Below, piece after piece: positions 20,861-57,833 of a DNA stretch of 64,000 nucleotides. The notes under the pieces are model-generated. The model ran no database searches, was not told the origin of the DNA, and was given only the letters and a program-made list of their open reading frames with translations. This stretch comes from Acidimicrobiia bacterium (GTDB lineage: Bacteria > Actinomycetota > Acidimicrobiia > IMCC26256 > PALSA-555). Position 1 is the first letter of the stretch. Every line of letters begins with the position of its first letter. The stretch is from positions 425 through 64,424 of the forward strand of contig DASZJD010000096.1 of the NCBI GenBank assembly GCA_035948415.1, given 5' to 3'. The position numbers were made by a program, and so were the translations under genes.

Positions 20861-22312
20861 GTGACCGTCTACCTCGTCGGGGCCGGTCCCGGCGACCCCG
20901 GGCTCTTGACCCGACGGGGCGCCGAGGTGCTGGCCCGCGCCGACGTCGTCGTCTACGACCGGCTGGCCGCCGACGCGCTCCTCGAGCTGGCGCCCGCGTC
21001 TGCGGTGCGCATCTCGGTCGGGAAGGCGCCGGGGGCGGCCGAGGCCACCCAGGACGAGATCAACGCGCTGCTCGTCGAGCACGGCCGCGCCGGTCGCGAG
21101 GTGGTGCGGCTCAAGGGTGGCGACCCGTTCGTGTTCGGACGCGGCGGCGAGGAGGCCGAGGCGCTCGCGGCGGCGGCGATCCCGTTCGAGGTCGTGCCGG
21201 GTGTCACCAGCGCGATCGCCGCGCCCGCATACGCCGGCATCCCGGTCACGCACCGTGGCGTCGCCACGCACGTCACCGTGGTCACCGGTCACGAGGACCC
21301 GGCCAAGGGACGCGTCGACGTCGACTGGGAGCAGCTCGCCCGCGTCGGCGGGACCATCGTGGTGCTGATGGGCGCGGCGCGCATCGGCGGCATCGTCGAC
21401 CGGCTCCGCGCCGGCGGCCTCCCCGACGACACGCCGGTCGCGGCGGTGCAGCACGGCACTCGCCCCGACCAGGTCACCCGACGAGCCACCCTCGGCTCGA
21501 TCTCGGCCCTCCGGGTCGAGCCGCCGGCCGCGATCGTCATCGGCGCCGCCGCCGCCCTCGACCTGGCCTGGTTCGAGCGGCGACCGCTGTTCGGCCGCAC
21601 CGTCGTGGTGACCCGAGCCCGCGAGCAGGCCAGCGGCCTGCGGGCCCGCCTTGAGACGCTCGGGGCCCGGGTCGAGGAGCTGCCCGCCATCGTGGTCGAG
21701 CCGCTGCCGGTCACCCTCCCCGACCTGACGCGGTACGCCTGGCTCGTCCTCACCTCCGCCAACGGGGTCGCGACCCTCTTCGACGAGGGACTGACGCCGA
21801 CGGGCCGGGACGCCCGGTCCCTCGCCGGCCTGCGCGTGGCCGTGATCGGGCCCGGCACGGCCGCCGCCTTGGCCGCCCGGGGTGTGCACGCCGACCTGAT
21901 CCCGGACCGCTTCGTCGCCGACGCGCTCGTCGACGCCTTCCCACCCGGGGCCGGCGAGGCGGTGCTCGTGGCCCGGGCCGAGCAGGCGCGCGACGTGCTC
22001 GTCGACGGGCTCGAGGCTCGGGGCTACGCGGTCGACGTCCTCCCCCTCTACCGCACCCGACCGGTGCCATCCGACCCGGCGGTCCTGGCGCGGGTCCGGG
22101 CCGGCGCCGTCGACGCGGTGACGTTCACGTCCTCCTCGACGGTCACGAACTTCTGCGACGCCGTCGGGCCGCTCGACCCGCAGCCCCTCGTCGTGTCGAT
22201 CGGGCCGGTGACCTCGGAGACGGCCCGCGCCCGCGGGCTGCGCGTCGACGCCGAGGCGACCGAGCACACCATCGACGGGCTGGTGGCGGCCCTCCTCGAG
22301 GTGCTGGCCTGA
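20861..22312 (+). CDS. cobA/hemD: uroporphyrinogen-III C-methyltransferase / uroporphyrinogen-III synthase fusion
   Basis: N-terminal VYLVGAGPGDPGLLT and VRLKGGDPFVFGRGGEE (SUMT). The C-terminal ~230 aa are HemD-like. Confidence 0.85.
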   Translation: MTVYLVGAGPGDPGLLTRRGAEVLARADVVVYDRLAADALLELAPASAVRISVGKAPGAAEATQDEINALLVEHGRAGREVVRLKGGDPFVFGRGGEEAEALAAAAIPFEVVPGVTSAIAAPAYAGIPVTHRGVATHVTVVTGHEDPAKGRVDVDWEQLARVGGTIVVLMGAARIGGIVDRLRAGGLPDDTPVAAVQHGTRPDQVTRRATLGSISALRVEPPAAIVIGAAAALDLAWFERRPLFGRTVVVTRAREQASGLRARLETLGARVEELPAIVVEPLPVTLPDLTRYAWLVLTSANGVATLFDEGLTPTGRDARSLAGLRVAVIGPGTAAALAARGVHADLIPDRFVADALVDAFPPGAGEAVLVARAEQARDVLVDGLEARGYAVDVLPLYRTRPVPSDPAVLARVRAGAVDAVTFTSSSTVTNFCDAVGPLDPQPLVVSIGPVTSETARARGLRVDAEATEHTIDGLVAALLEVLA

Positions 22313-22359
22313 CGCCCGGGCCGAGGGGCGGCGCCGGGGTGGCGCCCTACCATCGCGGC

Positions 22360-23337
22360 ATGGCGTTCCCCGAGCAGCGGCCTCGACGGCTGCGGCGCAC
22401 CCCGGCGCTGCGACGCCTCGTGGCCGAGACCCGCGTCGAGGTCGACGACCTCATCGCGCCGCTCTTCGTGAAGGAGGAGCTCCGGGAGCCGGAGCCGGTC
22501 CCCTCCATGCCCGGCGTGGTCCAGCACAGCCTCGAGAGCCTCACGAAGGAGGCCCGCGCCCTCACCGACCTCGGCCTGCCGGCGGTCGTGCTCTTCGGCG
22601 TCCCGACGCGGAAGGACGCGCGGGGCTCCGGCGCCGACGACCCCGACGGGGTGGTGCCGGTCGCGCTCCGGGCCCTGCGGGACGAGGTGGGCGACGACCT
22701 GGTCCTGATCGCCGACACGTGCCTCGACGAGTACACCGACCACGGGCACTGCGGCCTCGTGGGCCCCGACGGGACCGTGGACAACGACGCCACCCTCGGG
22801 CGGTACGCCTCGGCGGCCGTCACCCAAGCCGCGGCCGGCGCCGACGTCGTCGCCCCCTCCGGGATGATGGACGGCCAGGTGGGCGCCATCCGCGGCGCGC
22901 TCGACGACGCCGGGCACGCCGACACCGCCATCCTCGCCTACGCGGCGAAGTACGCCTCGGCGCTCTACGGGCCCTTCCGCGACGCCGCCGAGTGCGCGCC
23001 CCGGTTCGGCGACCGTCGTTCCTACCAGCTCGACCCGCCGAACGGCCGGGAGGCCGTCGCCGAGACCCTCCTCGACGTCGCCGAGGGCGCCGACCTCGTG
23101 ATGGTCAAGCCCGCCCTGGCGTACCTCGACGTCGTCGCGCGCGTCCGCGCCGCCGTCGACCTCCCCGTCGGCGCCTACCACGTGAGCGGCGAGTACGCGA
23201 TGGTGGAGGCCGCGGCCGCCAACGGGTGGCTCGATGGCGACGCGGTGATGCGCGAGCACCTGACGGCGATCAAGCGCGCTGGGGCCACCTTCATCCTCAC
23301 CTACGCCGCGCGTCGCGTCGCCGAAGCCCGGCGGTGA
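22360..23337 (+). CDS. hemB: porphobilinogen synthase
   Basis: RPRRLRRTPALRRLV, PSGMMDGQV, VMVKPALAYLD (active-site Lys region). ATG 22360; alternative GTG 22339. Confidence 0.9.
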   Translation: MAFPEQRPRRLRRTPALRRLVAETRVEVDDLIAPLFVKEELREPEPVPSMPGVVQHSLESLTKEARALTDLGLPAVVLFGVPTRKDARGSGADDPDGVVPVALRALRDEVGDDLVLIADTCLDEYTDHGHCGLVGPDGTVDNDATLGRYASAAVTQAAAGADVVAPSGMMDGQVGAIRGALDDAGHADTAILAYAAKYASALYGPFRDAAECAPRFGDRRSYQLDPPNGREAVAETLLDVAEGADLVMVKPALAYLDVVARVRAAVDLPVGAYHVSGEYAMVEAAAANGWLDGDAVMREHLTAIKRAGATFILTYAARRVAEARR

Positions 23338-24608
23338 ACGAGGACCTCCAGGCCCGGGCCCGCCTCCGCATCCCCGGCGGCGTCAACTCCCCGGTGCGCT
23401 CGTTCGCGAGCGTGGGCGGCGACCCGTTCTTCGTCGCCCGCGGCGAGGGCGCGTACCTCGTGGACGTGGACGGCAACCGGTACCTCGACTACGTGCAGTC
23501 CTGGGGGGCCTCGATCCTCGGCCACGCCCACCCCGTCGTGGTGGAGGCGGTGCAGCGCGCCGCCGCCGCCGGCACCTCGTACGGGGCGCCGACGCCCGGG
23601 GAGGTCGAGCTCGCCGAGGCGGTCGCGACGCGCGTCCCGTCGGTCGAGCAGCTGCGGCTGGTGTCGTCGGGCACCGAGGCGGCGATGACCGCGGTCCGGC
23701 TGGCCCGGGGGGTCACCGACCGACCGAAGATCTTGAAGTTCGCCGGCTGCTACCACGGGCACGTCGACGCGCTCCTCGTCGACGCGGGCAGCGGGGTGGC
23801 GACGCTGGGACTGCCCGGCTCGGCCGGCGTGACCGCCGGCGCGGTCGGCGACACCCTCGTCGCCCCGTTCAACGACGAGGCCGCCGTCGACGCCGCCTTC
23901 GCAGCCCACGGCGACGACCTGGCGGCCGTGCTCGTCGAGCCCGTCGCCGCCAACATGGGTCTCGTCGCCCCGCACCCCGGGTTCCTGGCCGGGCTGCGGC
24001 GCCGCTGCGACGAGGCCGGCGCGCTGCTCGTCGCCGACGAGGTCATCACCGGCTTCCGGGTCGGACCGGCCGGCGCCCAGGCGCGGCTCGGCTTCACCCC
24101 CGACCTCACCCTGTTCGGCAAGGTGCTCGGCGGCGGGCTCCCGCTCGCCGCAGTCGGCGGACCGGCGGCGATCCTCGCCGGCCTGGCCCCCGACGGCCCC
24201 GTCTACCAGGCCGGCACGCTGGCCGGGAACCCGCTCGCCACCGCCGCCGGGCGGGCCGTGCTCGGGTGCCTGGACGCCGCCGCCTACGACGAGCTCGAGG
24301 GCCGCGCCCGCCGTCTCGCCGACGGGGTCGCGGACGCGATGGCCGCCGCGGGCGTGGCCGCCCAGGTGCCGAGGGCGTGGACGCTGTGCGGGCTGTTCTT
24401 CGCCGACGGGCCCGTCACCGACTACGCCGGCGCCCAGGCCGCGGACGCCAAGCGCTACGCCCGGTTCTTCCAGGCCATGCTGCGCCGCGGCGTCTTCCTG
24501 CCCCCGAGCCCCTTCGAGACCTGGTTCCCGAGCCTCGCCCACGAGGACGCCGACCTCGCGGTGACGGTCGAGGCCGCCGGCGAGGCCGCCGCCGAGGTCG
24601 CGGACTAG
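23334..24608 (+). CDS. hemL: glutamate-1-semialdehyde 2,1-aminomutase
   Basis: IPGGVNSPVRSF, DEVITGFRV, GKVLGGGLPLAAVGG. GTGA overlap with hemB. Confidence 0.9.
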   Translation: MNEDLQARARLRIPGGVNSPVRSFASVGGDPFFVARGEGAYLVDVDGNRYLDYVQSWGASILGHAHPVVVEAVQRAAAAGTSYGAPTPGEVELAEAVATRVPSVEQLRLVSSGTEAAMTAVRLARGVTDRPKILKFAGCYHGHVDALLVDAGSGVATLGLPGSAGVTAGAVGDTLVAPFNDEAAVDAAFAAHGDDLAAVLVEPVAANMGLVAPHPGFLAGLRRRCDEAGALLVADEVITGFRVGPAGAQARLGFTPDLTLFGKVLGGGLPLAAVGGPAAILAGLAPDGPVYQAGTLAGNPLATAAGRAVLGCLDAAAYDELEGRARRLADGVADAMAAAGVAAQVPRAWTLCGLFFADGPVTDYAGAQAADAKRYARFFQAMLRRGVFLPPSPFETWFPSLAHEDADLAVTVEAAGEAAAEVAD

Positions 24609-24850
24609 CCGCGGCGTTCCTGGTCCCGGGCCCGGCGCCGGACCCGGTCCATGAAGAAGAGCGCGAAGCCGATCGCGAACACCATGAGGGCGAAGGCGAT
24701 GAACGCCACCGCCCCCGACCCGTTGTCGCGGGAGCCGGCGTCGACGAGCTGCTGCGCGCCGGCCGGGACCGCCGAGCCCGCCAGGGCGGCCAGGGCGGCG
24801 AGGCCGCCGACGACGAGGCGTCGCATCGGTCGCATGGGCATCCTCCTCAT
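24605..24850 (-). CDS. small exported/membrane-anchored protein (last gene of the b6-type operon)
   Basis: ATG 24850 lies 4 nt after the upstream stop. The 81-aa product has a signal-like MRRMPMRPMRRLVVGGLAALAALAGSAVPAGA and one C-terminal TM helix (AVAFIAFALMVFAIGFALFF). No family recognised. Confidence 0.4.
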   Translation of the reverse strand: MRRMPMRPMRRLVVGGLAALAALAGSAVPAGAQQLVDAGSRDNGSGAVAFIAFALMVFAIGFALFFMDRVRRRARDQERRG

Positions 24851-24854
24851 GGGC

Positions 24855-25706
24855 TCACCGCGGAGCGCCGACGAGCGGCCGGGACTCACGCTCGGGAAGG
24901 GCGCTGGCGCGCTCGGCGGCGGCCTTGGTGGCGCGCTCGTCCTTCTCCCGCCAGTGGAGCGCGAGGAGGCCGAGGCCGAACAGGATCGACGAGCAGAGGA
25001 AGGCGACGAACGGCGGGATCCGCAGCGATCCGTAGTTGAACTTCAGGATCGCGAACCCGCTCTTCGTCGAGGTCGGGTCGCACACCGGCGTCGGGGGAGG
25101 GAGGCCGAACGGCAGGTTGTTCGGGAGCACGCCACAGAACTGCACCACCCCGTAGAGGGGCTGGTGGTTCAGCTGCCAGTCGAGGAGGCGCGGCTTGCTG
25201 CCGCCGACCTCGTAGTACTTCACCTCCTTGAAGTCGGTCACGGTCTGGAACCGGGCGAACTGATTCTGGTTCGGGGGCAGCGGGATGTTGGCGACGGGCT
25301 GGACGGTGACGAGCTTGGCGTCGACCGCGGCCTTGATCGTCGCCGCCACGGTGGTGCTCACGACCCGGCCGACTCGTGGCGCGTCGCGGACCTCGGGGGA
25401 CAGCGCAGGGTCGTTGAGGTTGTTCACCACCTTCTGCACCTGCCACGCCGGGATCGTGCCCCGCAGCGTGTTCAGCGGTGAGGTCGTGAGCATCCACAGG
25501 ACCGTGAGCAGCACCATGAACCCCATCAGGCCGGTGAACGCGACGAGGAATCCGAGCCGGGCGCCGAGGTTCGTCGCCAGCAGCACGTACACCGACCCGC
25601 AGAACAGCCCGATCGCGGCCACCACGACGAGGATCCCGATGATCGTCGGGTACCAGATGCCGCTCGGCGGCGGCTTGGTGATGGTCTGGGCGAGGAGTGT
25701 GAGCAC
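24855..25706 (-). CDS. membrane protein with large extracytoplasmic domain, unknown function
   Basis: 283 aa with GTG start 15 nt after the cytochrome c stop. Two N-terminal TM helices, a ~150-aa hydrophilic domain and one C-terminal TM helix. Confidence 0.55.
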   Translation of the reverse strand: MLTLLAQTITKPPPSGIWYPTIIGILVVVAAIGLFCGSVYVLLATNLGARLGFLVAFTGLMGFMVLLTVLWMLTTSPLNTLRGTIPAWQVQKVVNNLNDPALSPEVRDAPRVGRVVSTTVAATIKAAVDAKLVTVQPVANIPLPPNQNQFARFQTVTDFKEVKYYEVGGSKPRLLDWQLNHQPLYGVVQFCGVLPNNLPFGLPPPTPVCDPTSTKSGFAILKFNYGSLRIPPFVAFLCSSILFGLGLLALHWREKDERATKAAAERASALPERESRPLVGAPR

Positions 25707-25721
25707 CGGCGCTCCGCGGGC

Positions 25722-26951
25722 CTACAGGCTGCGCTCGTAGTCGACGATCTCGGCGATCTGCTGGGCGGTAAGCAGGGCGCCGAAGTGGGGCATCCGACCC
25801 GACGAGATGCCCCGGGTGCCGTACGGCTGGTTGGCGGGCACGCCGGCCGTCACCCACTGGACCTGCTGGGTGCGCCCGGTCTGGCCGGGGAACTGGATCA
25901 GGACCGACCCGCCGTTGAGGGGCGGGCCGAAGGCGCCGCTGCCCTGGGCCGCCGGCGCGGGCTGGCTGAGCTTCGTCGGGTCGTTGAAGGACCAGTTCTT
26001 GGTGTGGCAGCGGGCGCAGTTGACCCGGAAGAGGATCGCGCCCTCGCTGAGGCTCTGCACCTCGGCGTTGTTCCGCTGGGCCGCCTGCAGCTGCGCCTGC
26101 AGCTGCGAGACCTGGGCCTGGAAGCTGCTGATGGCCGCGGCCGGCGCGCCCTTGGTCTGGGCCTGCGCGAGCTGGGCCTGCGCCGCGCTCAGGCTCTGGC
26201 TGGTCGTGGTCACGAGGTCGGCCGCCTGCTGCTTGTAGGTCGCGACCGCGGTCGCCGACTCCTTCTGCGCCTGCGTCGGGGAGATCTGGATGCTGTTGAT
26301 GAAGTTCACGAGGTCCTCGATTCCCTGCTCACCGAGGACTCCCTTCCCGCTGGCGACCCCCCATGCGGGCATGGGGGTGCCGGGTCTCCCGTACGTGATG
26401 ATCTGGGTCACCTGATCTCGGGAGAACCGGAACAGCTCGGTGTTCAGCGCCGGCGCCTGCCACGACACCTGCTGCGGGAGGCACTGCGGCACGCTGGCGT
26501 TGCTCTGGTTCTGCGGCAGCTGGCAGAGGTCGGCCTCGGGCGGCAGCGTGAACGGCGCCTGCCCGCCCTCGCCGTGCACGCCGTGGCAGTTGGCGCAGAG
26601 CAGCGACGTCGTGGGGTCATAGAACGGGCTCTGCTGGTTCGCGAACAGCGTGGCGCCGCGGTGGACCGACTCCTTCAGGAACTCGTTGGACGCGGTCGCC
26701 TCCCGGTTGGGCTCGACGAGGAAGTACACGGGCAGCGCCACCGCGAGGACGACCGTGAAGAGGAGGGCCCAGCCGAGGACCCGCTCGAGCTTGCGGCCCT
26801 CGAGGTCCTCGTCGGGCAGGCCCGGGGCCAGGTTCAGCGGCGGGCGCGGCTCGGGGTTCCGACGCAGGCTGACGACGCGCCAGACGACGAAGCCGCCGAG
26901 GGCCAGGACGACGACGCCGTTCAGGACGGCGATCGCGGACTCGAAGCTCAC
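25722..26951 (-). CDS. membrane-anchored diheme cytochrome c
   Basis: 409 aa. Two CxxCH motifs (CANCH, CARCH) with distal Met contexts (GTPMPAW, GRMPHF). N-terminal two-helix anchor and a Q/A-rich linker between the heme domains. Confidence 0.8.
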   Translation of the reverse strand: MSFESAIAVLNGVVVLALGGFVVWRVVSLRRNPEPRPPLNLAPGLPDEDLEGRKLERVLGWALLFTVVLAVALPVYFLVEPNREATASNEFLKESVHRGATLFANQQSPFYDPTTSLLCANCHGVHGEGGQAPFTLPPEADLCQLPQNQSNASVPQCLPQQVSWQAPALNTELFRFSRDQVTQIITYGRPGTPMPAWGVASGKGVLGEQGIEDLVNFINSIQISPTQAQKESATAVATYKQQAADLVTTTSQSLSAAQAQLAQAQTKGAPAAAISSFQAQVSQLQAQLQAAQRNNAEVQSLSEGAILFRVNCARCHTKNWSFNDPTKLSQPAPAAQGSGAFGPPLNGGSVLIQFPGQTGRTQQVQWVTAGVPANQPYGTRGISSGRMPHFGALLTAQQIAEIVDYERSL

Positions 26952-27000
26952 CGCGCCTCGGTCCCCGCCTCGCCGGCGCCGGGCCCGGACGCCGCCGCCG

Positions 27001-27861
27001 TCACACGCACGGCGCGCCTTCCGCCGCCTGCCCGGTGGTGTCGGTGCCGATGGGCGGCCCCTGGATGATGGTGCCGGTGTCGACGACCATCGAGCCGCCC
27101 GACAGCGAGAACGGGAACCGGTCGAGCCCGCGCGGCGCCGGCCCGCCCCGCTTCTCGCCGACCCGGTTGTACTTCGAGCCGTGGCACGGGCACTCGAACC
27201 ACTGCGAGGTCAGGCACCACGGCACCCGGCACCCGAGGTGCACGCACCGCTGGTAGAGGGCGACGTAGCCGAGCTGCAGGCCGCTGAGGATGATGGGCGC
27301 GTAGATCTTCTTCGCCTTCGGGAGCGCGTCCTTCGGGTACGGGTTGATGTACACCTTCGCAGTGGCGTTGTAGTACGGCGTCTTCTTGGCGATGGCGGCG
27401 TCGATGTCCGACTTGTTCCCGATGTTGATCTTGCTGCCGAACCCACCCGCACTCGACGCTCCCGGCCAGAGGAACCCGAGCGCGGCGGCGCCGAAGCCGC
27501 TGACGGCCAGGAGCATGCCGGTCAGGATCCCGCGGTTGAAGAACTGACGACGAGTGATCCCCAGCTCCTCATCGTCGACCGGCTCGTAGCGGGTGACGCC
27601 CCGCTCGCCGGCGGGGACCGGGAGGCCGCCGCCGCTCTCGATGGCGCGTCGCGACTCGTCGGCGCGCTGGCGCGGGTCCTCGCCCGCCACCGGCTCGGCG
27701 CCCTCCGGGGCGCTCGGCGCCGCCTCCGGGGGCGGCTCGCTGGCGTCGGCCCGTCGCGTCTCGCGGCTGAGCCGGCCGGTGGCTCGCCGGCGGGCGGTGC
27801 CGACGACGAACAGCCCCGCCAGCCCGATGAGGACCAGGACGCCGACGATGATGACCGCCAC
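27001..27861 (-). CDS. Rieske [2Fe-2S] subunit
   Basis: CVHLGC and CPCHGS cluster boxes. Internal twin-arginine motif TRRQFFNRG before a second TM helix. GTG start 9 nt after the upstream stop. Confidence 0.85.
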   Translation of the reverse strand: MAVIIVGVLVLIGLAGLFVVGTARRRATGRLSRETRRADASEPPPEAAPSAPEGAEPVAGEDPRQRADESRRAIESGGGLPVPAGERGVTRYEPVDDEELGITRRQFFNRGILTGMLLAVSGFGAAALGFLWPGASSAGGFGSKINIGNKSDIDAAIAKKTPYYNATAKVYINPYPKDALPKAKKIYAPIILSGLQLGYVALYQRCVHLGCRVPWCLTSQWFECPCHGSKYNRVGEKRGGPAPRGLDRFPFSLSGGSMVVDTGTIIQGPPIGTDTTGQAAEGAPCV

Positions 27862-27870
27862 CGATGGCTC

Positions 27871-28713
27871 CTACAGCTCGAAGAACGTCCCGTTGTTCCA
27901 CGGGAAGACGAAGTTGAAGCCCTCGCCGCGGAAGAACGAGCCGATGATGACGAGCACGGCCCAGAGCATGACGAAGATCGTGAAGACCGCGATGGCGAAC
28001 TTCCGGTCCTTCGGGAAGTGCGAGGGGTTCTTGTCGACGTAGGGCGCGACCGCGAGCAGGCCGAGCCCGATCCCCGGGATCGTCACGCCCGCCACCATCG
28101 GGTGGAACATCGTGAGCAGCTCCTGGAGGCCCAGGAAGTACCACGGCGCCTTCGACGGGTTCGGCGTCTTGTTCGTGTCGGCGAGACCCAGCAGCGGAGC
28201 CTTGATGACGGCCGAGAAGATCGTGAGCGCGGCCATGACGATGAGGATCGACGCGAACTCGATGACCAGCAGGTGCGGCCACACGTGCACCTTGTCCTGG
28301 GCCTCGGCGCGCGTCTGCTGGATCGAGCCGGACTTGACGACGGTGAGCAGGCGCTGGGTGTGACCGCCGGGGCCGGTCGCGGTCGGGGCGGGCGGGGCGG
28401 CGACCGCCGTGGCCGCGCCCGCGCCGACGCCCGCCGCCGCGGGGGCGGCCTCGCCGGCGACGGTGGCCCGCCGCTTCTTCGACCGCTCGAGCAGGTGGGC
28501 CGGGATCTTGGCGCCGCCGGGCGTCTCGACGTCCTCGCCGCCGCCCTCGGCCCCCGCGCCGGCGTCCGCGGCCGGTGGGGCCTCGGCCGCGGGGGCTTCG
28601 GCGTCGGCCGCCTCCGCCGCCGGCGCCTCGTCCTCCTCGCCCGGCACCGGGAGCCCCAACGCCTTGCGGCGCTCGCGGGACCGCCGCAGCAGGTGTTCGG
28701 GAACCTCAGCCAC
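27871..28713 (-). CDS. cytochrome b C-terminal half / subunit IV (PetD-like) with ~140-aa N-terminal extension
   Basis: The C-terminal 140 aa have three TM helices and a Qo-loop motif KAPWYFLGLQELL (PEWY position). Strong SD GGAGGAGGAG upstream. Confidence 0.75.
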   Translation of the reverse strand: MAEVPEHLLRRSRERRKALGLPVPGEEDEAPAAEAADAEAPAAEAPPAADAGAGAEGGGEDVETPGGAKIPAHLLERSKKRRATVAGEAAPAAAGVGAGAATAVAAPPAPTATGPGGHTQRLLTVVKSGSIQQTRAEAQDKVHVWPHLLVIEFASILIVMAALTIFSAVIKAPLLGLADTNKTPNPSKAPWYFLGLQELLTMFHPMVAGVTIPGIGLGLLAVAPYVDKNPSHFPKDRKFAIAVFTIFVMLWAVLVIIGSFFRGEGFNFVFPWNNGTFFEL

Positions 28714-28728
28714 GCTCCTCCTCCGTGC

Positions 28729-29526
28729 CTACAGCGGACCCGAGAGGCCGCCGTCCTTGCGGACCCGCCAGAAGTGGACGGCCATGAAGATGACGATGAC
28801 GAACGGCAACAGCAGCACGTGCAGCACGTACCATCGCAGCAAGGTCTGGTCGCCGATCTGCTGCGACCCGAGCAGCACGTATTTGACGCTGCTCCCGAAC
28901 ACGGGCGTGTACCCCATCATGTTCGTGCCCACCGTCACCGCCCAGAGCGCCAGCTGGTCCCACGGGAGCAGGTAGCCGGTGAACGACAGGAGCAGCGTCA
29001 GCGTGAGCAGGATTACGCCGATCACCCAGTTGAACTCCCGGGGGGCCTTGTAGGCGCCGTGGTAGAAGACGCGGCACATGTGCAGGAACACGGTGAGCAC
29101 CATGAGGTGCGCCGCCCACCGGTGCATGTTCCGCACCAGCGACCCGAACGTGACCGCGGTCTCGAGTGTCCGGATGTCGTTCCAGGACGTCGCCGTGGTC
29201 GGCCGGTAGAAGAACATCAGGAAGATGCCGGTCACGGTCAGCAAGATGAAGAGGAAGAACGACATCCCGCCGAGACACAGCGTGTAGGACACCTTCACGG
29301 CGTGCCGCTTCACCTTCACGGGGTGCAGGTGGTACAGCACGTTGTTCATGATCACGTAGGACCGGTTCCGGGGGCTGTCCGTGTAGCCGCGCCGGTACAC
29401 GGAGCCGGGCCGGAAGATGGAGTTCCACGCCTGCGAGCCACGGAGCCGTTCGTCGACCTTGTCGAGCGCGGCCGCGACGCGCACCCGGCCCCGCCCGTTG
29501 CCGTCGCTGCCGTTGCCGTTGGGCAC
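28729..29526 (-). CDS. cytochrome b6-type subunit (cytochrome b N-terminal half)
   Basis: Helix B His pair H-x13-H (MHRWAAHLMVLTVFLH), helix D His pair H-x14-H (HVLLLPFVIVIFMAVH), TLCLGG Cys, PWDQ, and a b6-like C-terminal end ..RKDGGLSGPL. Confidence 0.9.
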   Translation of the reverse strand: MPNGNGSDGNGRGRVRVAAALDKVDERLRGSQAWNSIFRPGSVYRRGYTDSPRNRSYVIMNNVLYHLHPVKVKRHAVKVSYTLCLGGMSFFLFILLTVTGIFLMFFYRPTTATSWNDIRTLETAVTFGSLVRNMHRWAAHLMVLTVFLHMCRVFYHGAYKAPREFNWVIGVILLTLTLLLSFTGYLLPWDQLALWAVTVGTNMMGYTPVFGSSVKYVLLGSQQIGDQTLLRWYVLHVLLLPFVIVIFMAVHFWRVRKDGGLSGPL

Positions 29527-29566
29527 GAACCTGTCTCCTCGCTCGTCGGGGCGCCGGCCGGCGCCC

Positions 29567-29980
29567 CTAGAACCGCACCCCGTACGCGTACCCGTGCCGG
29601 TTCGTGCGGGTGTGCGTGTCGCCGACCGCCTCGTCGCCGCCGAGCTTCCCGAGGATGATCACGCCGGTCGGGCACCGGTCGACACACAGCGCGCAGCGCG
29701 TGCAGACGTCCTCGTCGACGATGAACGCCACGTGGTCGTGCGGGTCCTCGCCCGGCTGGTCAGTCCCGACGGCCTCGGCGATCGCGCCGACCGACACCAT
29801 GTGAATGCACTTCCACGGGCAGATGTCGACGCAGCCCTCGCACAGGATGCACTCGGCCTGGTCGATGTGGAGGAACTGCTTCGGCTTCACCGACTGGGTC
29901 AAGAAGGCCGGGTCCACCTCTTGGAGCTGGTAGTCGGTCACGAAGTCCGGCATGGGGGGATTGGCGTCGGTTCGGGCCAC
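29567..29980 (-). CDS. 2[4Fe-4S] dicluster ferredoxin-domain protein
   Basis: 137 aa with CILCEGCVDICP and CTRCALCVDRCP. No hydrophobic helix or signal peptide. Start is GTG 29980 or ATG 29953. Confidence 0.8.
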   Translation of the reverse strand: MARTDANPPMPDFVTDYQLQEVDPAFLTQSVKPKQFLHIDQAECILCEGCVDICPWKCIHMVSVGAIAEAVGTDQPGEDPHDHVAFIVDEDVCTRCALCVDRCPTGVIILGKLGGDEAVGDTHTRTNRHGYAYGVRF

Positions 29981-29982
29981 GG

Positions 29983-30657
29983 CTACCCCTTCACCCGCAG
30001 CGGCCGACCGAACCGCGACCGCCGAGCCGGTGCGCCCTCAACGGCGGCCGGGGCCTCCCGCACCTCGTGGCGGCGCTGCCACATCACCCACAGCTTCAGG
30101 TTGGCGCCGAGCAACGCGACGTAGATCACCGTCGTCACGACGTCCCGCAGCGCCGGGAAGTCGAGGTTGAAGGGCCAGTGCCAGGGGAGGAACAGCATCT
30201 GCTCGCTGCTCCTCCAGACGAACTTCGTCGTGTCGCCCCACTGCAGGTAGGCGTTGGCGTAGTTCAGCCACTCGCTCGGGACGATGGCGTAGCCGACCAC
30301 GAAGAGCCCGAACACGCCGACGGCGCCGGCGAACGCCTCGGCCCACGTCGCCGGCTCCTCGGGCCCGCGGCCCCGGCTGCTCGCCGCCATGAGGAGCCCG
30401 TGCCCGACCAGCGCGAGGGCGGTGGCCCAGACGACCAGCGTCTGCACGCTCGGGAGCACCCGCGCGCCCACGACGCCGACGACGAGGATGGCCGGGAAGG
30501 CGAGGTAGCCGACACGATCGGGGAACGGCCGCTTCAGGAGGGGGCGCTTCATCATCGTCACCACGAAGATCAGCCCCACGACGAGCGCCAGCGAGCCCCA
30601 GATCAGCCGGCCGGCGGGCCGGATCCACGGCAGCCAGTCGGGCATCAGGTTGGGCAT
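29983..30657 (-). CDS. integral membrane protein, unknown function (first gene of the b6-type operon)
   Basis: 224 aa with about five hydrophobic helices. Its stop is 2 nt before the ferredoxin start. SD-like GAGGAGGAG upstream. Confidence 0.55.
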   Translation of the reverse strand: MPNLMPDWLPWIRPAGRLIWGSLALVVGLIFVVTMMKRPLLKRPFPDRVGYLAFPAILVVGVVGARVLPSVQTLVVWATALALVGHGLLMAASSRGRGPEEPATWAEAFAGAVGVFGLFVVGYAIVPSEWLNYANAYLQWGDTTKFVWRSSEQMLFLPWHWPFNLDFPALRDVVTTVIYVALLGANLKLWVMWQRRHEVREAPAAVEGAPARRSRFGRPLRVKG

Positions 30658-30777
30658 GCCGCCGGTGCTCCTCCTCGTCGGGCCGTCGGGCCCTGGAGAG
30701 CCAGGCCCTCAAGAACCCTTGTCCCGTCGGCGTTCCTACCACGCTAACTGCGGAACCGGCATATCGGGACGCAGCCG

Positions 30778-32064
30778 GTGGTCGGTCCGGCCGACGGCGA
30801 TGGCACGATGTCCGCGATGGGCCCGAGCGACCGCTTCGACGTGCTCGTGGTGGGCGCCGGGCCGTCGGGCGCCGCCGCGGGGGCCTGGCTCGCCGACGCC
30901 GGCCACCGGGTCCTCATCGTCGAGCGCAAGGCGTTCCCTCGCGAGAAGACCTGCGGCGACGGGCTGACCCCCCGCGCCGTCCGCCAGCTCGAGGACCTCG
31001 GCCTCGCCGACGAGCTCGCCCCCCATCTCCGGGTCGAGGGCCTGCGGTCGATCGCCCACGGTGTCACCCTCGAGCTCCGATGGCCCGAGCACCCCGACTT
31101 CCCCGACTACGGGTACGTGATCCGTCGGCGCGACCTCGACACCCTGGTCGCGGACCGGGCGGTGAAGGCCGGGGCCACGCTCCGGACCGGGACCGAGGCG
31201 GTCGAGCCCACGACCGACGGCGGGCTCGTGACCGGCGCCGTGCTGCGCGGAGACGGGGGCACCGAGGCGGTGAGGGCCCGCTACGTGGTCGTCGCCGACG
31301 GCGCCAACTCGCGGTTCGGTCGGGCGCTGGGTACGACGCGCGACCGCAGCTACCCGCTCGGGATGGCGGTGCGCGGATACTTCCAGAGCCCGTACCACGA
31401 CGAGCCGTGGATCGAGAGCCACCTGGACCTCCAGGACCGCCACGGCCACCATCTCCCGGGCTACGGCTGGGTCTTCCCGCTCGGCGACGGGACGGTGAAC
31501 GTCGGCGTCGGGCTGCTCTCGACGTTCGCGGGGTGGAAGGACGTCAACACGACCTCGCTCATGTCGGCGTTCTGCGAGACCGCGCCGGCCCGGTGGCGGA
31601 TCGGCCCCGACACCGCGTGTGGCGCGCCGACCGGCGGCAAGCTCCCGACCGGGCTCTCGGTGTTCCCGAAGGTCGGTCCGACCTGGTGCACGGTCGGGGA
31701 CGCCGCAGGTTCGGTGAACCCGTTCAACGGCGAGGGCATCTCCGTCGCCTACGAGACCGGCCGATTCGCCGCCGAGGCGCTCGACGAGGCGCTGCGCACC
31801 GGCGACGGCCTCGCCCTCCGGCGCTACCCCGAGCGCCTCGAGGCCGAGTACGGGCTGTACTTCAAGGTCGCGCGCTCGTTCGTCCGGGCCATCGGCAACC
31901 CGGCCGTCATGCGCGAGCTGACCCGGGTCGGCTTCCTGTCCCGCTCGCTCATGGAGTGGGTGCTGCGCATCATGGCCAACCTGCTGCGGCCCGACGAGCT
32001 CGGCCCGGCGGAGGCCGCGTACCGGATCGTCGAGCGCCTCGTCGCGATCGGTCCGGAGCCCTAA
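30778..32064 (+). CDS. geranylgeranyl reductase-family FAD oxidoreductase (menaquinone side-chain reductase-like)
   Basis: [18 protein letters not shown] motif, [26 protein letters not shown]. Start is GTG 30778 or ATG 30808. Confidence 0.8.
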
Positions 32065-32186: not shown

Positions 32187-32654
32187 GTGACGCAGTACCT
32201 GCCGATTTTGGCGATGGTCGTCTTGGTGCTGCTCTTCGTGAGCCTCTCGTTCGCGGTGTCGGGCCTGCTCGGCCCGCGCCGGCGGCCGACGTCGGCGAAG
32301 GAGGCGCCGTACGAGTGCGGGATCGTTCCCGAGTCCGAGCCCGCGGAGCGCTTCCCGGTCCGGTTCTACCTCGTCGCGATGGTGTTCATCGTCCTCGACG
32401 TCGAGATCATCTTCCTCTACCCGTTCACGACCGTCCTGAAGTCGCTCGGCGCCTACGGGCTCGTCGCGATGGGCGTCTTCCTGCTGGTGCTCCTCGTCCC
32501 GTTCGGGTACCTCCTGTCCACGGGCGCGGTGGAGTGGGGACCGGCCCGCCGCGGCGTCACGCGCGTCGCCCCGCGGCGGATCGTGAGGGTCCGCGGCAGG
32601 CCGGGTCGCCACGGGCTGGACCCCAGCCGGACGTCGGGCGAGGAAGCCGCCTGA
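32187..32654 (+). CDS. nuoA: NADH-quinone oxidoreductase subunit A
   Basis: GTG lies 6 nt after GGAGG. Motifs PYECG and [13 protein letters not shown]. 155 aa with a ~35-aa basic C-terminal tail. Confidence 0.9.
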
Positions 32655-32656
32655 CG

Positions 32657-33226
32657 ATGGGGCTCGAGCAGATTCCTCACAACTTCCTCACCGGGCGCCT
32701 CGAGGACCTCGTGCGATGGGCGCGACAGCGGTCGATGTTCCCAGCCACGTTCGGGCTGGCCTGCTGCGCGATCGAGCTGATGGCCGTCGGCGGCGCCCAC
32801 TACGACTTGGCGCGCTTCGGCATGGAGATCTTCCGGGCCAGCCCGCGTCAGGCCGACCTCATGATCGTCGCCGGGCGGGTGAGCCAGAAGATGGCTCCGG
32901 TGCTCCGGCAGGTCTACGACCAGATGGTCGACCCGAAGTGGGTGATCTCGATGGGCGTCTGCGCCAGCACCGGCGGCATGTTCAACAACTACGCGCTGGT
33001 GCAGGGCGTTGACCAGATCGTCCCCGTCGACGTGTACGTGCCGGGGTGCCCGCCCGGTCCCGAGACCCTGTTCCACGGCATCCTGACCCTCCACCAGCAG
33101 GTCCGGACCGGCGAGCTGCTGCGGCGGCGGCAGGCGACCGGCGCCGGCGCCGGCCTCCAGGTCGGGCAGCGGGACGGGATCCCCTCCCACGTCCAGCCGA
33201 TCCCGGTGCGCCGGAAGTCGGCCTGA
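32657..33226 (+). CDS. nuoB: NADH-quinone oxidoreductase subunit B
   Basis: [18 protein letters not shown] and VPGCPP (cluster N2 ligands). ATG 32657 within tracked ORF 32174..33226. Confidence 0.9.
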
Positions 33227-33244
33227 CCGACGCAAGCGCAGGCG

Positions 33245-33793
33245 ATGGCCACCGAGCACGAGCAGGGCGCGACGCCCCCGGGCGACACCGTCGACGAGGT
33301 CGCGGCGGCCGTCGCGGCGCGCTTCCCGGGCAGCGTGGTGTGGGTGTCGCACGGCCAGCCGGTCGTCTACGTCGACCGGCCCGCCTGGCGCGGCGTGGCG
33401 GTGTTTCTGCGGGACGACGAGCGGTTCACGCAGTGCCTGGACGTCACCGCGGTCGACCACCTGGTCGACGAGGAGCGGGTCGCCGTCCCCGGCGTCACCG
33501 TGGAGCGGTTCGAGGTCGTCGCCAACTTCCTGTCGCACCCGCGCAACCGCCGCCTCCGGGCCATCTGCGAGGTGCCGGAGGGGGACGCCTCGGTCGCCAG
33601 CCTGAGCGGCCTCTATCCCGGCGTGAACTTCGCTGAGCGCGAGGTGTTCGACCTGTTCGGCATCGTGTTCGAGGGCCATCCCGACCTCACCCGGATCCTG
33701 ATGCCGGACGACTGGGTCGGGTACCCGCTGCGCAAGGACGACGCCCCGGCTCGGATCCCGGTCGAGTTCAAGGGCGATCCGGCCCCGCGATGA
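33245..33793 (+). CDS. nuoC: NADH-quinone oxidoreductase subunit C
   Basis: [37 protein letters not shown]. Confidence 0.9.
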
Positions 33794-35079
33794 GCGAGCC
33801 GATTCAGGTTCCGGCGGTCGAAGAGGCGCGGCTCGAACGGCAGACCGACGAGGGCGACCAGCAGCTGTCGCCGGCGCGGGGCGAGGTGATCGCCGGCGGC
33901 GTGTGGCCCGAGGGCGACGACACCATGATCATCAACATGGGGCCGCAGCACCCGTCGACCCACGGGGTGCTGCGCATCATGTTGGAGCTCGACGGCGAGA
34001 CCATCGTGCGCTCCAAGCCGGTGATCGGGTACCTCCACACGGGGATGGAGAAGACCGGCGAGGAGCTCACCTACGTGCAGGGCGGCACGAACGTCACGCG
34101 GATGGACTATCTGTCCCCGTTATCGAACGAGCTCGTCTACTCGATGGCGGTCGAGCGCCTGCTCGACCTCGAGGTCCCGCCGCGGGCGGTGTGGATGCGC
34201 ATGCTGCTCGTCGAGCTGAACCGGGTGGCCTCCCACCTGCTCTTCCAGGCGACGAACGGGCTCGATCTCGCGGCCACGTCGATGATGATCTACGGGTGGC
34301 GGGAGCGGGAGCTGACCCTGCGCTTCCTCGAGGCCGTGACCGGTCTGCGGATGAACAACAACTTCATCCGGCCGGGCGGCGTGGCCGCCGACCTCCCGGA
34401 CGGCTGGCGGGCCGACCTCGACCAGCTCTGCACCACGGTCGAGCGGGGCGTCCGTGACTACGTCGACCTCCTGGCCGAGAACCCGATCTGGCTCGAGCGC
34501 CTGGTCGGCGTCGGGACCATCTCGACCGCCGACGCCATCGCGCTCGGGCTCACCGGCCCGATCCTGCGGGCGACCGGCTTCGCGTGGGATCTACGCAAGG
34601 CCCAGCCCTACCTCGCGTACGACGACGTCGACTTCGACGTCGTGTGCGGGGAGCGGGGGGACTGCTACGACCGGTACCACGTCCGGCTCCACGAGATCCT
34701 CGAATCGGTGAAGATCGTCCGGCAGTGCGCCGATCGCATGCCCGCCGGCGACTACCGGGTCCAAGACCGCAAGGTGACGCCACCGCCGCGCGCTCGCATC
34801 GACGAGTCGATGGAAGCCCTCATCCACCACTTCAAGCTGTTCACGGAGGGGTTCCGGGTGCCTCCGGGCGAGACGTACGTCGCCATCGAATCGCCGCGTG
34901 GCGAGATCGGCTGCTATCTCGTGTCCGACGGGACCGGCAAGCCGGTTCGCCTCCACATCCGTGGCCCCTCCCTCTACAACCTGCAGGGCATCAGCTCGAT
35001 GGCCAGCGGTGCCTTGATCGCCGACGCCGTGGCCATCGTGTCCAGCGTCGACCCGATCCTCGGCGAGGCGGACCGCTGA
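33790..35079 (+). CDS. nuoD: NADH-quinone oxidoreductase subunit D
   Basis: [25 protein letters not shown]-terminal end ..[13 protein letters not shown] overlap with nuoC. Confidence 0.95.
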
Positions 35080-35579
35080 TGGCGTTGACGGACGCGGACC
35101 GGCGGCGCGCCCGAGAGCTGATCGAGCGGTACCCGTCGCCGAAGTCCGCCCTGCTGCCCCTGCTGCACCTCGCGCAGGACCGCGACGGCTGGGTGGCCCC
35201 TGAGTCCATGGAGGAGCTGGCGGCGATCCTCGGGCTCTCCCCGGCCCAGGTGCTCGGCGTGTGCTCCTTCTACTCGATGCTGAAGCGCGAGCCGGTGGGG
35301 CGACTTGTGGTCTCGGTGTGCACGAACGTCTCGTGCATGGTCAACGGCGGCTCCGAGCTCTTCACCCAGCTCCACGACCGGTTCGCGGCCAACCCGGACG
35401 TGACCGTCGAGGAGGTCGAGTGCATCGCCCACTGCGACCACGCCCCGGCCTACCAGGTCAACTACGACTTCCACGGGCCCGCCGACGCTGACGCGGCCGC
35501 CGACGTCATCGAGCGGTACGAGCGCGGCGAGCTCGCGGCCCGCACGATCTCGGGGACCTCGCCCGCGGAGGTGCCGTGA
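35079..35579 (+). CDS. nuoE: NADH-quinone oxidoreductase subunit E
   Basis: [2Fe-2S] ligands CTNVSC ... ECIAHC. ATG overlaps the nuoD stop. Confidence 0.9.
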   Translation: MALTDADRRRARELIERYPSPKSALLPLLHLAQDRDGWVAPESMEELAAILGLSPAQVLGVCSFYSMLKREPVGRLVVSVCTNVSCMVNGGSELFTQLHDRFAANPDVTVEEVECIAHCDHAPAYQVNYDFHGPADADAAADVIERYERGELAARTISGTSPAEVP

Positions 35580-36913
35580 TGGCGGACCCGTCCCACGAGA
35601 CCCTCGTCGTCACCGAGTTCCTCCGGGCCCGAACCGACGACTCGTGGACGATGGAGGCCGCGCGCACCCACAACCGCGCCTACCAGACGGTCGAGCAGGC
35701 CTTCGCGATGGGACCCGAGGCCATCACCGCCGCCGTCACCGACTCGGTGCTGCGCGGCAAGGGCGGCGCCGGGTTCGGAACCGGGCAGAAGTGGTCGTTC
35801 CTGCCGAAGGCCGCGTTCCCGCGCTACCTCTGCGTGAACGCCGACGAGGGCGAGCCCTGCACGTTCAAGGACCACATGCTGATCGAGCGTGACCCCCACC
35901 AGCTCCTCGAGGGCATCATCATCTCGTCCTACGCCATCCAGACCGACCTCGCCTTCGTCTACGTGCGCGGCGAGTTCGCGCTGGGCGCCGAGCGCCTCGG
36001 CCAGGCCATCCGCGACGCGTACGCGCAGGGTTTCCTCGGGGCCAACATCCTCGGATCGGGGTACCGCCTCGACGTCGTCTTGCACCGAGGCGCGGGCTGC
36101 TACATCGCCGGTGACGAGACCGGCCTGCTCTCCAGCCTCGAAGGCGAACGCGCCATGCCGCGCATCAAGCCACCCTTCCCCGCCGCCCAGGGCGTCTACG
36201 CGGCCCCGACGATCGTCAACAACGTCGAGACCATCTCGACCGTCCCCCACATCATCCGGCGCGGCGCGCAGTGGTACAACGCGATGGGCGCGAACCGGTC
36301 GACGGGGACGCGGATCTTCTCGGTGTCGGGCCACGTCCAGCGGCCGGGCAACTACGAGGTCGAGCTCGTCAAGACCAGCTTTCGCGACCTGATCGAGGGC
36401 CTCGCCGGCGGCGTGCGCGGCGGGCGGGAGCTCAAGTTCTTCGTGCCCGGCGGCGCGTCGTCACCCTGGTTGCTCCCCGAGCACCTCGACGCCCCGCTCG
36501 ACATGGACTACGTGCAGGGCGAGCTCCGGTCGATGCTCGGCTCCGGCGCGGTGATGGTCTTCGACGAGACGACCGACCCGATCCTGGTCGCGTGGCGGCT
36601 GGCCAGGTTCTTCGCCCACGAGTCCTGCGGTAAGTGCACCCCGTGCCGAGAGGGATCGGCCTGGATCGAGAAGGTGCTCTACCGAATGGCCCACGGCCAG
36701 GGTCGACCCGACGACCTCGACCTCCTGCTGTCGTTCGGCAACAACATCGTGCCGGGGCTCAACGCCCCGTTCGCCCAGACGACGATCTGCGCCCTCGGCC
36801 CGAGCACGATGAGCCCGGTCGTGAGCCTCGACCGGTGGTTCCGCGACGAGATCCTCGAGCGGATGCACCGCGACGAGCAGCGTCGCCGCGCCATGGAGGT
36901 CGTGCCGGCGTGA
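35576..36913 (+). CDS. nuoF: NADH-quinone oxidoreductase subunit F
   Basis: GKGGAGFGTGQKW (FMN site) and ESCGKCTPCREG (cluster N3). Confidence 0.95.
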   Translation: MMADPSHETLVVTEFLRARTDDSWTMEAARTHNRAYQTVEQAFAMGPEAITAAVTDSVLRGKGGAGFGTGQKWSFLPKAAFPRYLCVNADEGEPCTFKDHMLIERDPHQLLEGIIISSYAIQTDLAFVYVRGEFALGAERLGQAIRDAYAQGFLGANILGSGYRLDVVLHRGAGCYIAGDETGLLSSLEGERAMPRIKPPFPAAQGVYAAPTIVNNVETISTVPHIIRRGAQWYNAMGANRSTGTRIFSVSGHVQRPGNYEVELVKTSFRDLIEGLAGGVRGGRELKFFVPGGASSPWLLPEHLDAPLDMDYVQGELRSMLGSGAVMVFDETTDPILVAWRLARFFAHESCGKCTPCREGSAWIEKVLYRMAHGQGRPDDLDLLLSFGNNIVPGLNAPFAQTTICALGPSTMSPVVSLDRWFRDEILERMHRDEQRRRAMEVVPA

Positions 36914-42284: not shown

Positions 42285-42308
42285 GCGCATGGGCGCCGGG
42301 GGGCTGGG

Positions 42309-54935: not shown

Positions 54936-54941
54936 GCGCAC

Positions 54942-55448: not shown

Positions 55449-55449
55449 G

Positions 55450-55749: not shown

Positions 55750-55756
55750 CCGCACC

Positions 55757-57814: not shown

Positions 57815-57833
57815 AGCGAGGTAACGACAAGCG

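Follow-up and report, generated by a model that had tools for sequence, protein, structure and literature searches.

A conserved split-cytochrome b gene block with a linked ferredoxin as the probable respiratory complex III of Acidimicrobiia

Which Rieske/cytochrome b complex is encoded by Acidimicrobiia, and where does a ferredoxin-like protein fit among its genes? The question is raised by a 64-kb stretch of DNA from an Acidimicrobiia bacterium (GenBank assembly GCA_035948415.1, contig DASZJD010000096.1, positions 425 to 64,424; this whole stretch is termed the window, and its coordinates are used throughout), in which a block of eight open reading frames (ORFs; g1 to g8) occupies the minus strand at 24605-30657. 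The analysis described below suggests that the block probably encodes the respiratory complex III of Acidimicrobiia, a split-b (b6c-type) menaquinol:cytochrome c oxidoreductase of the previously catalogued APWY clade that is fitted with an iron-sulfur module on its n-side (cytoplasmic side). The core of this enzyme is not new, since it represents a further member of a catalogued and uncharacterised clade; the novelty resides in the conserved ferredoxin and in two orphan membrane proteins encoded with it. The features of the block are as follows.

29983-30657, minus strand: g1, membrane protein of 224 residues, an ORF with five predicted transmembrane (TM) helices
29567-29980, minus strand: g2, 2[4Fe-4S] ferredoxin-like protein of 137 residues, matching Fer4 families
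28729-29526, minus strand: g3, cytochrome b6 of 265 residues (Pfam Cytochrome_B, E-value 1e-47)
29275-29277, minus strand: codon of Cys84 in the CLGG motif of b6, candidate haem-ci ligand
27871-28713, minus strand: g4, subunit IV of 280 residues (Cytochrom_B_C; three TM helices)
27001-27861, minus strand: g5, Rieske protein of 286 residues (Pfam Rieske)
27538-27555, minus strand: TRRQFF motif of the Rieske protein
27229-27246, minus strand: CVHLGC motif of the Rieske protein
27169-27192, minus strand: CPCHGSKY motif of the Rieske protein
25722-26951, minus strand: g6, dihaem cytochrome c of 409 residues (Cytochrom_C and Cytochrome_CBB3 families; two CxxCH motifs)
26583-26597, minus strand: CANCH haem motif of g6
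26004-26018, minus strand: CARCH haem motif of g6, joined to the former by a Gln/Ala-rich linker
24855-25706, minus strand: g7, membrane protein of 283 residues with three TM helices, family-less
24605-24889 (GTG start) or 24605-24850 (ATG start), minus strand: g8, signal peptide followed by a single-TM peptide

The genes from g1 to g7 are separated by gaps of 2, 40, 15, 9, 49 and 15 nt, and the g7/g8 junction consists of either a 4-nt gap, with the ATG at 24850, or a 35-nt overlap, with the GTG at 24889. An initial annotation of this DNA had described eight co-directional genes lying 2-49 nt apart; all eight ORFs were recovered here, with the caveat of the overlap that the GTG start of g8 would create. 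Several of the products are identical to proteins with locus tags VG869_13290-13320 of an Acidimicrobiia metagenome-assembled genome. Third-codon-position G+C ranges from 0.92 to 0.97 for all eight ORFs, as expected of real genes in a window of 72% G+C. A promoter and terminator scan of 24000-31500, in DNA of this composition, returned no more signals than shuffled sequence.

Cytochrome b is split over two adjacent genes, whose products belong to the Cytochrome_B (b6) and Cytochrom_B_C (subunit IV, three TM segments) families. The b6 protein aligns from end to end with the b6 chains of solved structures (E-value of 5e-48), its C-terminal RKDGGLSGPL matching their last residue. Its haem ligands are H135/H149 (H-x13-H) and H236/H251 (H-x14-H), and all four alignment columns are invariant. 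Cys84 of the TLCLGG motif corresponds by alignment to Cys35 of b6 in PDB codes 6rqf, 2zt9 and 1q90, the C84-L-G-G segment pairing with C35-L-G-G in the first two and with C35-I-G-G in the third. Cys84 is invariant across 81 b6 orthologue sequences, as is the second glycine of the CxGG motif among the orthologues, and this cysteine is a candidate covalent ligand of haem ci. At its N-terminus, b6 displays a conserved n-side extension of ~50 residues, in which H66, H68 and H75 are invariant. When compared with NCBIfam, b6 scores best against the ExtP model (308 bits), followed by the models for cytochrome b6 (214 bits) and actinobacterial QcrB (121 bits).

Subunit IV carries APWY (residues 189-192, 28138-28149) as its Qo motif. 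It also possesses an n-side N-terminal extension of 140 residues, with a conserved segment preceding helix E. Two repeats of a basic motif, PxHLLxRSxxRR, are located at residues 5-16 (28666-28701) and 71-82 (28468-28503); one or two copies of it occur in 67 of 73 subunit IV orthologues, and it is essentially missing from the other operon products, apart from one chance-level match in one ferredoxin orthologue. An invariant Glu152-Phe153 pair adjoins the position of PetD Phe40: in the alignment with spinach PetD, Phe153 falls on Phe40 and Glu152 one residue before it, the alignment being ambiguous by one residue as regards the axial ligand of haem ci. In the Rieske protein, a TM helix at the N-terminus is followed by a cytoplasmic loop, and an internal twin-arginine translocation (Tat) motif precedes a second TM helix. 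Its best matches of solved structure are Kuste4569 (PDB code 9rk4) and Kustd1480 (PDB code 9rk3) from Kuenenia, with PetC next, and the CPCHGSKY of its box II recurs unchanged in Kuste4569. The dihaem cytochrome c has a predicted N-terminal TM hairpin as membrane anchor. By sequence, the Rieske protein is thus Tat-dependent and the dihaem cytochrome c membrane-anchored, and every cofactor-binding motif of a b6-type Q-cycle enzyme is present in the predicted products. The split of cytochrome b with its histidine spacings and C-terminal end, the position of the TLCLGG cysteine and the CVHLGC, CPCHGS and internal TRRQFF motifs of the Rieske protein had been pointed out in the initial annotation, and each was borne out by the residues and alignments described above.

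Comparison with characterised complexes supports the assignment to the b6c type. The block resembles cytochrome b6f in the end-to-end match of b6, in the conserved Cys35 position, in the separate subunit IV and in its PetC-like Rieske protein. In contrast to b6f, it has no cytochrome f and no PetG, PetL, PetM or PetN homologues, APWY replaces PEWY, and both b6 and subunit IV have long n-side extensions. Identity with b6f was rejected on the scores of PRK03735 (214 bits, cut-off of 325), TIGR01156 (16 bits, cut-off of 127) and the PetC model (62 bits, cut-off of 250), the dihaem cytochrome c taking the place of cytochrome f. With the QcrCAB complexes of Mycobacterium and Corynebacterium the block shares the phylum, a dihaem c subunit, a Rieske protein with internal Tat signal and a probable electron transfer to a haem-copper oxidase in which no soluble cytochrome c takes part. 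However, cytochrome b is split here and has the haem-ci cysteine, the Rieske protein has two TM helices instead of three, and the dihaem cytochrome is anchored at its N-terminus rather than its C-terminus. The QcrCAB models NF050120, NF050121 and NF050122 yielded 121, 17 and 27 bits, respectively, against cut-offs of 500, 275 and 200; QcrCAB was thus rejected as the identity of the block, and the previous assignment to a b6c-type Rieske/cytochrome b complex distinct from QcrCAB stands. No canonical qcrCAB or other complex III was seen within the window. The b6c complexes of Bacillus and Heliobacterium (QcrABC/PetCBD) are similarly menaquinol-oxidising, have a split cytochrome b with haem ci and present a glutamate beside the haem-ci face of subunit IV, although the alignment at this residue is ambiguous by one position. 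In Bacillus, subunit IV is fused to cytochrome c. The c-type protein of the present block is, in contrast, separate and dihaem, and no ferredoxin gene has been described in the operons of these organisms.

The initial annotation had further considered the gene composition to be non-canonical for an actinobacterium-like genome. This is overstated in the light of the distribution scan, which used one genome per species and in which the loci of the best 80 b6 relatives were examined. Relatives of b6 are encoded in at least 596 species genomes; for the best 80, identity is 77-91%, and Acidimicrobiia account for nearly all of them. Colinearity was assessed by tblastn of the eight products against the related loci, of which those holding at least five of g1-g7 were considered informative. 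The order g1-g7 is kept in 73 of 73 informative loci, an arrangement far beyond chance. The block is therefore the normal form in Acidimicrobiia and no oddity of one genome; it is carried, among others, by Aquihabitans sp. G128 (L053), for which a complete genome of a named strain is available. Levels of conservation differ markedly between products, with median identities across loci of 82% for b6, 72% for the ferredoxin (77 loci), 64% for subunit IV, 49% for the Rieske protein, 33% for cytochrome c and 32% for both g1 and g7. Among the operon products, the ferredoxin is thus under the strongest constraint after b6.

Four diverged relatives of the ferredoxin (38-44% identity), from other lineages of Actinomycetota, all reside in the same seven-gene block. 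The order in these distant blocks is a membrane protein of 115-154 residues without Pfam match, ferredoxin, b6, subunit IV, Rieske protein, cytochrome c and a protein of 249-341 residues without confident Pfam match. Their b6 proteins are 66-72% identical and contain T[LF]CLGG, subunit IV contains APWY, and the Rieske proteins display CPCHGSKY and an RR motif; PSKAPWYFLGLQE, the Qo motif of subunit IV, is likewise found in the four distant blocks. In two of them the g1 gene and the ferredoxin gene share 4 nt. The neighbouring genes vary and include those for cytochrome c maturation (ResBC in some blocks, CcmA-H in others), haem-copper oxidase (COX1, FixO or COX2), CtaA and CtaB, with hemL (Aminotran_3) adjoining the block in three distant loci and hemB (ALAD) in two. 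The persistence of the same seven genes amid differing neighbours argues that the unit is old and has kept its composition through changes in the systems around it. Of the four extra genes that had previously been tied to the core, g1, g2 and g7 thus prove to be co-inherited with it across the class and beyond, whereas g8 is confined to the 10 closest loci; that the extra products are subunits of the complex is what we infer from this pattern. Two loci from metagenome-assembled genomes (MAGs) of Ilumatobacteraceae (L025 8001-8777 and L067 8001-8768) hold a b6 homologue of 79% identity with no other block genes within ~8 kb, in DNA containing no masked runs of N; this homologue may be a solitary paralogue.

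The initial annotation had also presented the enzyme as a distinct one, which for the core is no longer tenable: the combination of split b, CxGG and APWY was catalogued for Acidimicrobidae and Rubrobacteridae in 2014, in the sections of that survey devoted to cytochrome b (PMC4122944). There, Kao and Hunte list five split cytochromes b among 618 actinobacterial sequences, from Rubrobacteridae and one Acidimicrobidae strain, Ilumatobacter coccineum, and place them in the "APWY" or "PEWY-cyt c" clades; the APWY clade has the CxGG haem-ci motif, and the same sections state that no member had been characterised as of 2014 (PMC4122944). A related grouping appears in the sections on subfamilies in Dibrova et al. 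(2017), whose taxonomically mixed subfamily G consists mostly of short cytochromes b with CxGG (PMC5600118). We equate the APWY clade of Kao and Hunte with this subfamily G and with groups A1/A2 of Baymann (PMC4122944, PMC5600118, PMC3509893). The present block agrees with the clade in its split b6 and subunit IV, its CxGG and APWY motifs and its class of organism, that of I. coccineum. In contrast, the sections on the APWY clade cover cytochrome b and the Qo motif only, and neither a ferredoxin nor orphan membrane proteins are mentioned in them. A literature search found no experimental or biochemical work on the Acidimicrobiia gene block, and in the sections on cytochrome b of the papers retrieved, the cytochrome b phylogeny papers included, no linked ferredoxin and no proteins like g1 or g7 are described.

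The g2 ferredoxin contains two CxxCxxCxxxCP cluster motifs, at 29816-29851 and 29669-29704, and has no TM segment. Its N-terminal extension of 35 residues and its C-terminal tail are both conserved and nearly invariant. The family is narrow, an exhaustive HMMER search yielding 36 representatives below an E-value of 1e-30. Among more distant relatives, P0370, P0384, P0385 and P0352 contributed no gene context, as their contigs are too short or not recorded. When multi-domain polyferredoxins and members of its own family are set aside, g2 matches best the C-terminal dicluster domains of ~600-residue Fer4_20 + Pyr_redox_2 (GltD-like) proteins, with identities of 42-47%. In one of these, P0373, the insert between the clusters has 40 residues compared with 38 in g2, and the second-cluster motif is close to the DEDxCxRCALCVxRCP of g2. 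The locus of P0373 (L095, a contig of low G+C) comprises genes for a b6 (59% identical), an APWY subunit IV, the P0373 oxidoreductase and three c-type cytochromes, of which two are large multihaem proteins; by its gene content this operon is of the anammox type. Apparent g1-ferredoxin and ferredoxin-b6 fusions among cluster representatives were set aside: most contain frame-shifted stretches and none was counted as evidence, including P0259, which reads through in frame and ends at a contig edge. A detached ferredoxin homologue of 116 residues (42% identical) is located at 3278-3628 of L089 and 2165-2515 of L090. It lacks the 35-residue N-terminal extension that is present in all operon-linked copies, and it is followed by a pair of extracytoplasmic function (ECF) sigma and anti-sigma factor genes in place of b6, subunit IV and Rieske.

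The closest analogue of the block, absent from the initial annotation, is the group of Rieske/cytochrome b complexes of anammox bacteria that include an iron-sulfur flavoprotein on the n-side. The Kuenenia complexes carry an NAD(P) oxidoreductase on the cytoplasmic side, and in AlphaFold3 models four iron-sulfur clusters line up as a chain under the b6 dimer and an extra haem b is predicted on a histidine of the b6 N-terminal region (PMC12954380). The potentials measured for the Rieske proteins Kuste4569 and Kustd1480 are +303 and +335 mV, respectively, which is unusually high for menaquinol oxidation, and the authors proposed that quinol bifurcation could drive electrons out to NAD(P)+ (PMC12954380). 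The block resembles the Kuste4569-4574 and Kustd1480-1485 complexes in its b6 with a predicted haem cN, its subunit IV and its Rieske protein, whose best solved matches lie there and whose box II is identical to one of theirs; those complexes also have an n-side iron-sulfur module homologous to g2, as judged from the anammox-type operon at L095. Nevertheless, g2 is a free-standing protein of 137 residues that lacks Fer4_20 and any FAD or NAD(P) portion, the c-type cytochrome is dihaem where theirs is multihaem or HAO-like, subunit IV has three predicted TM helices where theirs has five, and the host belongs to Acidimicrobiia, a mainly aerobic class. Of the anammox-type oxidoreductase subunit, the block contains the dicluster part only (g2), the full architecture being present in P0373 at L095. 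The resemblance is thus one of working principle and not of membership, and g2 looks like the docking iron-sulfur module of the anammox complexes, freed from its flavin part.

The reading preferred here, a Q-cycle complex III with an n-side iron-sulfur module, would operate by analogy with the solved b6f and bc1 complexes. Menaquinol would be oxidised at Qo, one electron passing via the Rieske centre and the dihaem cytochrome c to a haem-copper oxidase and the other crossing the membrane via bL, bH and haem ci to Qi, where menaquinone would be reduced. The g2 protein, as a stand-alone version of the anammox iron-sulfur docking domain without flavin and NAD(P) part, would be a subunit on the cytoplasmic side that docks on the n-side extensions which b6 and subunit IV possess, with the tail of g1 as a possible further contact; its two clusters would then lie close enough to bH and haem ci for electron tunnelling. 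It is the genetic linkage of g2, its constraint and its homology to the anammox module that suggest the n-side location. Candidate docking surfaces are the b6 extension with H66, H68 and H75, the subunit IV extension with its PxHLLxRSxxRR motifs and the basic tail of g1. On balance, g2 appears to be an electronically coupled subunit. If it is, departure of electrons from the low-potential chain to the clusters has close to an even chance, and the high potential predicted for the Rieske centre speaks for it. Entry of electrons from cytoplasmic low-potential donors, with reduction of menaquinone, is a lesser yet appreciable possibility; it is thermodynamically easier than exit, and mirrors an idea on electron flow from ferredoxin to haem cn in b6f that is cited in the corresponding section of Dibrova et al. 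(PMC5600118). A purely structural or regulatory function of the clusters seems rather unlikely. The Q cycle is expected to be the main route and the clusters a side branch, because the window showed no further complex III and none is indicated in the literature on related lineages: for UBA5794, an order related to Acidimicrobiia, a genome survey records only a cytochrome b subunit (PMC12008989), and for 'Ca. Actinomarinales' complex III was reported as missing (PMC7771536). The respiratory context of the window consists of hemB, hemL, a MenJ-like gene and nuo. A more specific proposal, in which the ferredoxin forms a permanently docked n-side wire on bH/haem ci, such that the complex would be the simplest natural Rieske/b6 complex to exchange low-potential electrons with the cytoplasm, is less likely than not. 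In this proposal, H66, H68 and H75 of the b6 extension may ligate an extra haem between the monomers, as predicted for the anammox enzymes.

Several observations weigh against the preferred reading and temper the strength with which it is put forward. The covalent haem is deduced from the CxGG motif, and the high potential of the Rieske centre is predicted from two residues and from similarity to a close relative. Menaquinone is presumed to be the quinone from general knowledge of the class and from a sub-threshold match to MenJ. Of the two GltD-like relatives examined, the second has no adjoining cytochrome b gene. The detached ferredoxin homologue adjoins MenJ-like and nuoA-C genes (divergent, as in the window) and no b6 genes, from which it follows that relatives of g2 can exist apart from the complex. 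Finally, co-transcription and co-inheritance of g1, g2, g7 and g8 would also fit assembly factors. In an alternative explanation, the block encodes an ordinary b6c complex III, the ferredoxin and flanking membrane proteins being no subunits of it: they would be co-transcribed helpers in cofactor insertion, haem-ci attachment or assembly, or, in the case of g2, an unrelated housekeeping ferredoxin. To our knowledge, no system for haem-ci maturation has been recognised in non-photosynthetic lineages, which makes a dedicated haem-ci factor plausible, and besides the homologue found without adjoining b6 genes, the poor conservation of g1 and g7 (median ~32% identity) and their want of the invariant histidine or methionine typical of cofactor ligands, H181 of g7 excepted, point in the same direction. 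However, g1 and g7 match no CCB family in Pfam, and a CCB-type role in haem-ci maturation was rejected for both on this ground. Moreover, conservation of the ferredoxin exceeds that of subunit IV and of the Rieske protein, which would be unusual for an assembly factor, the sole detached homologue examined lacks the N-terminal extension of the operon-linked copies, and the closest outside relatives of g2 are domains of proteins modelled as docked subunits of the anammox complexes (PMC12954380). A role outside the complex is considered the less likely explanation.

The anammox parallel could also be carried further than in the preferred reading. The complex would then be mainly a bifurcating quinol:ferredoxin/cytochrome c oxidoreductase without a working Qi site, from which all low-potential electrons exit via g2. 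The identity of box II with that of Kuste4569 (+303 mV), the rank of the two Kuenenia Rieske proteins as best solved matches, the homology of the ferredoxin to the n-side iron-sulfur domain of anammox-type operons and the energetic case made for a very low bL potential (PMC12954380) are consistent with this. It is considered improbable, given that the haem-ci cysteine, the second CxGG glycine and the Glu-Phe pair that subunit IV has near the haem-ci face are invariant, as expected for a working Qi, and that no flavin or NAD(P) module is present. In addition, the window showed no complex III besides this one, and UBA5794 was reported with this type of cytochrome b only (PMC12008989); were this the sole complex III, half of the respiratory electrons of an aerobic heterotroph would end on ferredoxin and require a route of re-oxidation. 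The NCBI naming, by which orthologues in MAGs of Actinomycetota (L082, L083) are called ExtP, suggests a module of the ExtOPQ type that serves to reduce selenite/tellurite or to transfer electrons out of the cell. The b6 protein is indeed closely related to ExtP, scoring 308 bits on the equivalog NF040969 (cut-off of 290), and a Rieske protein and subunit IV are present in both cases. In contrast, the ExtQ model gives subunit IV 58 bits (cut-off of 150), and the block is surrounded by genes for haem synthesis, nuo, oxidases and a MenJ-like protein. The ext operon of Geobacter, an anaerobic metal reducer, has multihaem cytochromes, a porin and a rhodanese around Rieske, b6 and subunit IV and no ferredoxin; the porin, rhodanese and 4- to 12-haem cytochromes are not in the block, which has the dihaem cytochrome c and the ferredoxin instead (PMC5877670). 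An ExtOPQ function is thus highly improbable, and the name ExtP, contradicted by gene content and by the ExtQ result, was rejected for b6. The designation "selenite/tellurite reduction operon b-type cytochrome ExtP" is a systematic misnomer, an annotation artefact that arises because orthologous b6 proteins pass the NF040969 cut-off.

The membrane proteins g1, g7 and g8 have no match in Pfam or NCBIfam. AlphaFold models of g1 and g7 (predicted local distance difference test scores of 82 and 75.5, respectively) retrieved nothing below an E-value of 0.3 in a Foldseek search of the PDB, and profile searches of PDB sequences with the two proteins returned nothing significant. The g1 gene sits upstream of the ferredoxin gene in 74 loci, its product showing a median identity of 32% and a conserved basic C-terminal tail, RRSRFGRPLR. 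Residues 39-98 form an insertion of ~60 residues relative to most orthologues (median of 170 residues), which adds two predicted TM helices. All 120 of the 120 listed g1 homologues have uninformative names, being hypothetical, unnamed or given one of three generic labels. The g7 protein comprises an N-terminal TM hairpin, an extracytoplasmic domain in which Cys191 and Cys209 are invariant and a C-terminal TM helix, and its gene comes after the cytochrome c gene in 65 loci and likewise in the distant blocks. Past its signal sequence, g8 is a peptide of ~45 residues (AQQLVDAG...LAF...FFMDRVRR; third-position G+C of 0.96) that is lineage-specific, orthologues with the motif being found in the 10 closest loci only and not in the remaining ones. 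The most likely role of g1, g7 and g8 is that of supernumerary membrane subunits or of assembly factors.

The identity of the block matters beyond this contig. Soil, fresh water, the sea and activated sludge all harbour abundant Acidimicrobiia, and a correct description of the seven-gene block would fix the reconstruction of respiratory chains for the whole class. The role of haem ci, and whether a carrier of ferredoxin level makes contact with the n-side of b6-type complexes, are questions of bioenergetics, as is the anammox proposal of quinol-driven NAD(P)+ reduction. A complex with a minimal, genetically fixed module of two clusters would offer a simple system in which to test them, and its interest would be considerably higher if the ferredoxin were wired to haem ci. 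Such a wire would imply either that quinol oxidation is split to make ferredoxin-level reductant in an aerobe or that the complex contains a bound ferredoxin:quinone reductase. An enzyme of the latter kind has long been postulated for cyclic electron flow around b6f. As Aquihabitans sp. G128 carries the block, material for purification may be obtainable.

The genes that flank the block comprise a divergent neighbour and a convergent one. The divergent neighbour is the following.

30778-32064, plus strand: MenJ-like geranylgeranyl-reductase-family FAD protein (Pfam FAD_binding_3)

Its product scores 238 bits on TIGR02032, above the cut-off, and has MenJ as its best match, with 325 bits on the MenJ model, below the cut-off of 700; nuoA-N comes after this gene. 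On the other side lies a haem-synthesis run (20861-24608) of a fused uroporphyrinogen-III methyltransferase/synthase, hemB and hemL, which is convergent with g8, the stop codons of hemL and g8 overlapping. The window holds two nuo clusters, within 32187-47000 and 51450-60839. The first is a full nuoA-N set, with nuoF at 35576-36913. The second is partial and contains nuoC-like (51450-52226), nuoD-like (52004-53407) and nuoJ/K/L/M/N (54942-60839) genes, no E, F or G genes being seen between the nuoD-like and nuoJ-N parts. A similar nuo paralogue without E, F and G has been described in 'Ca. Actinomarinales', for which use of F420 was suggested (PMC7771536).

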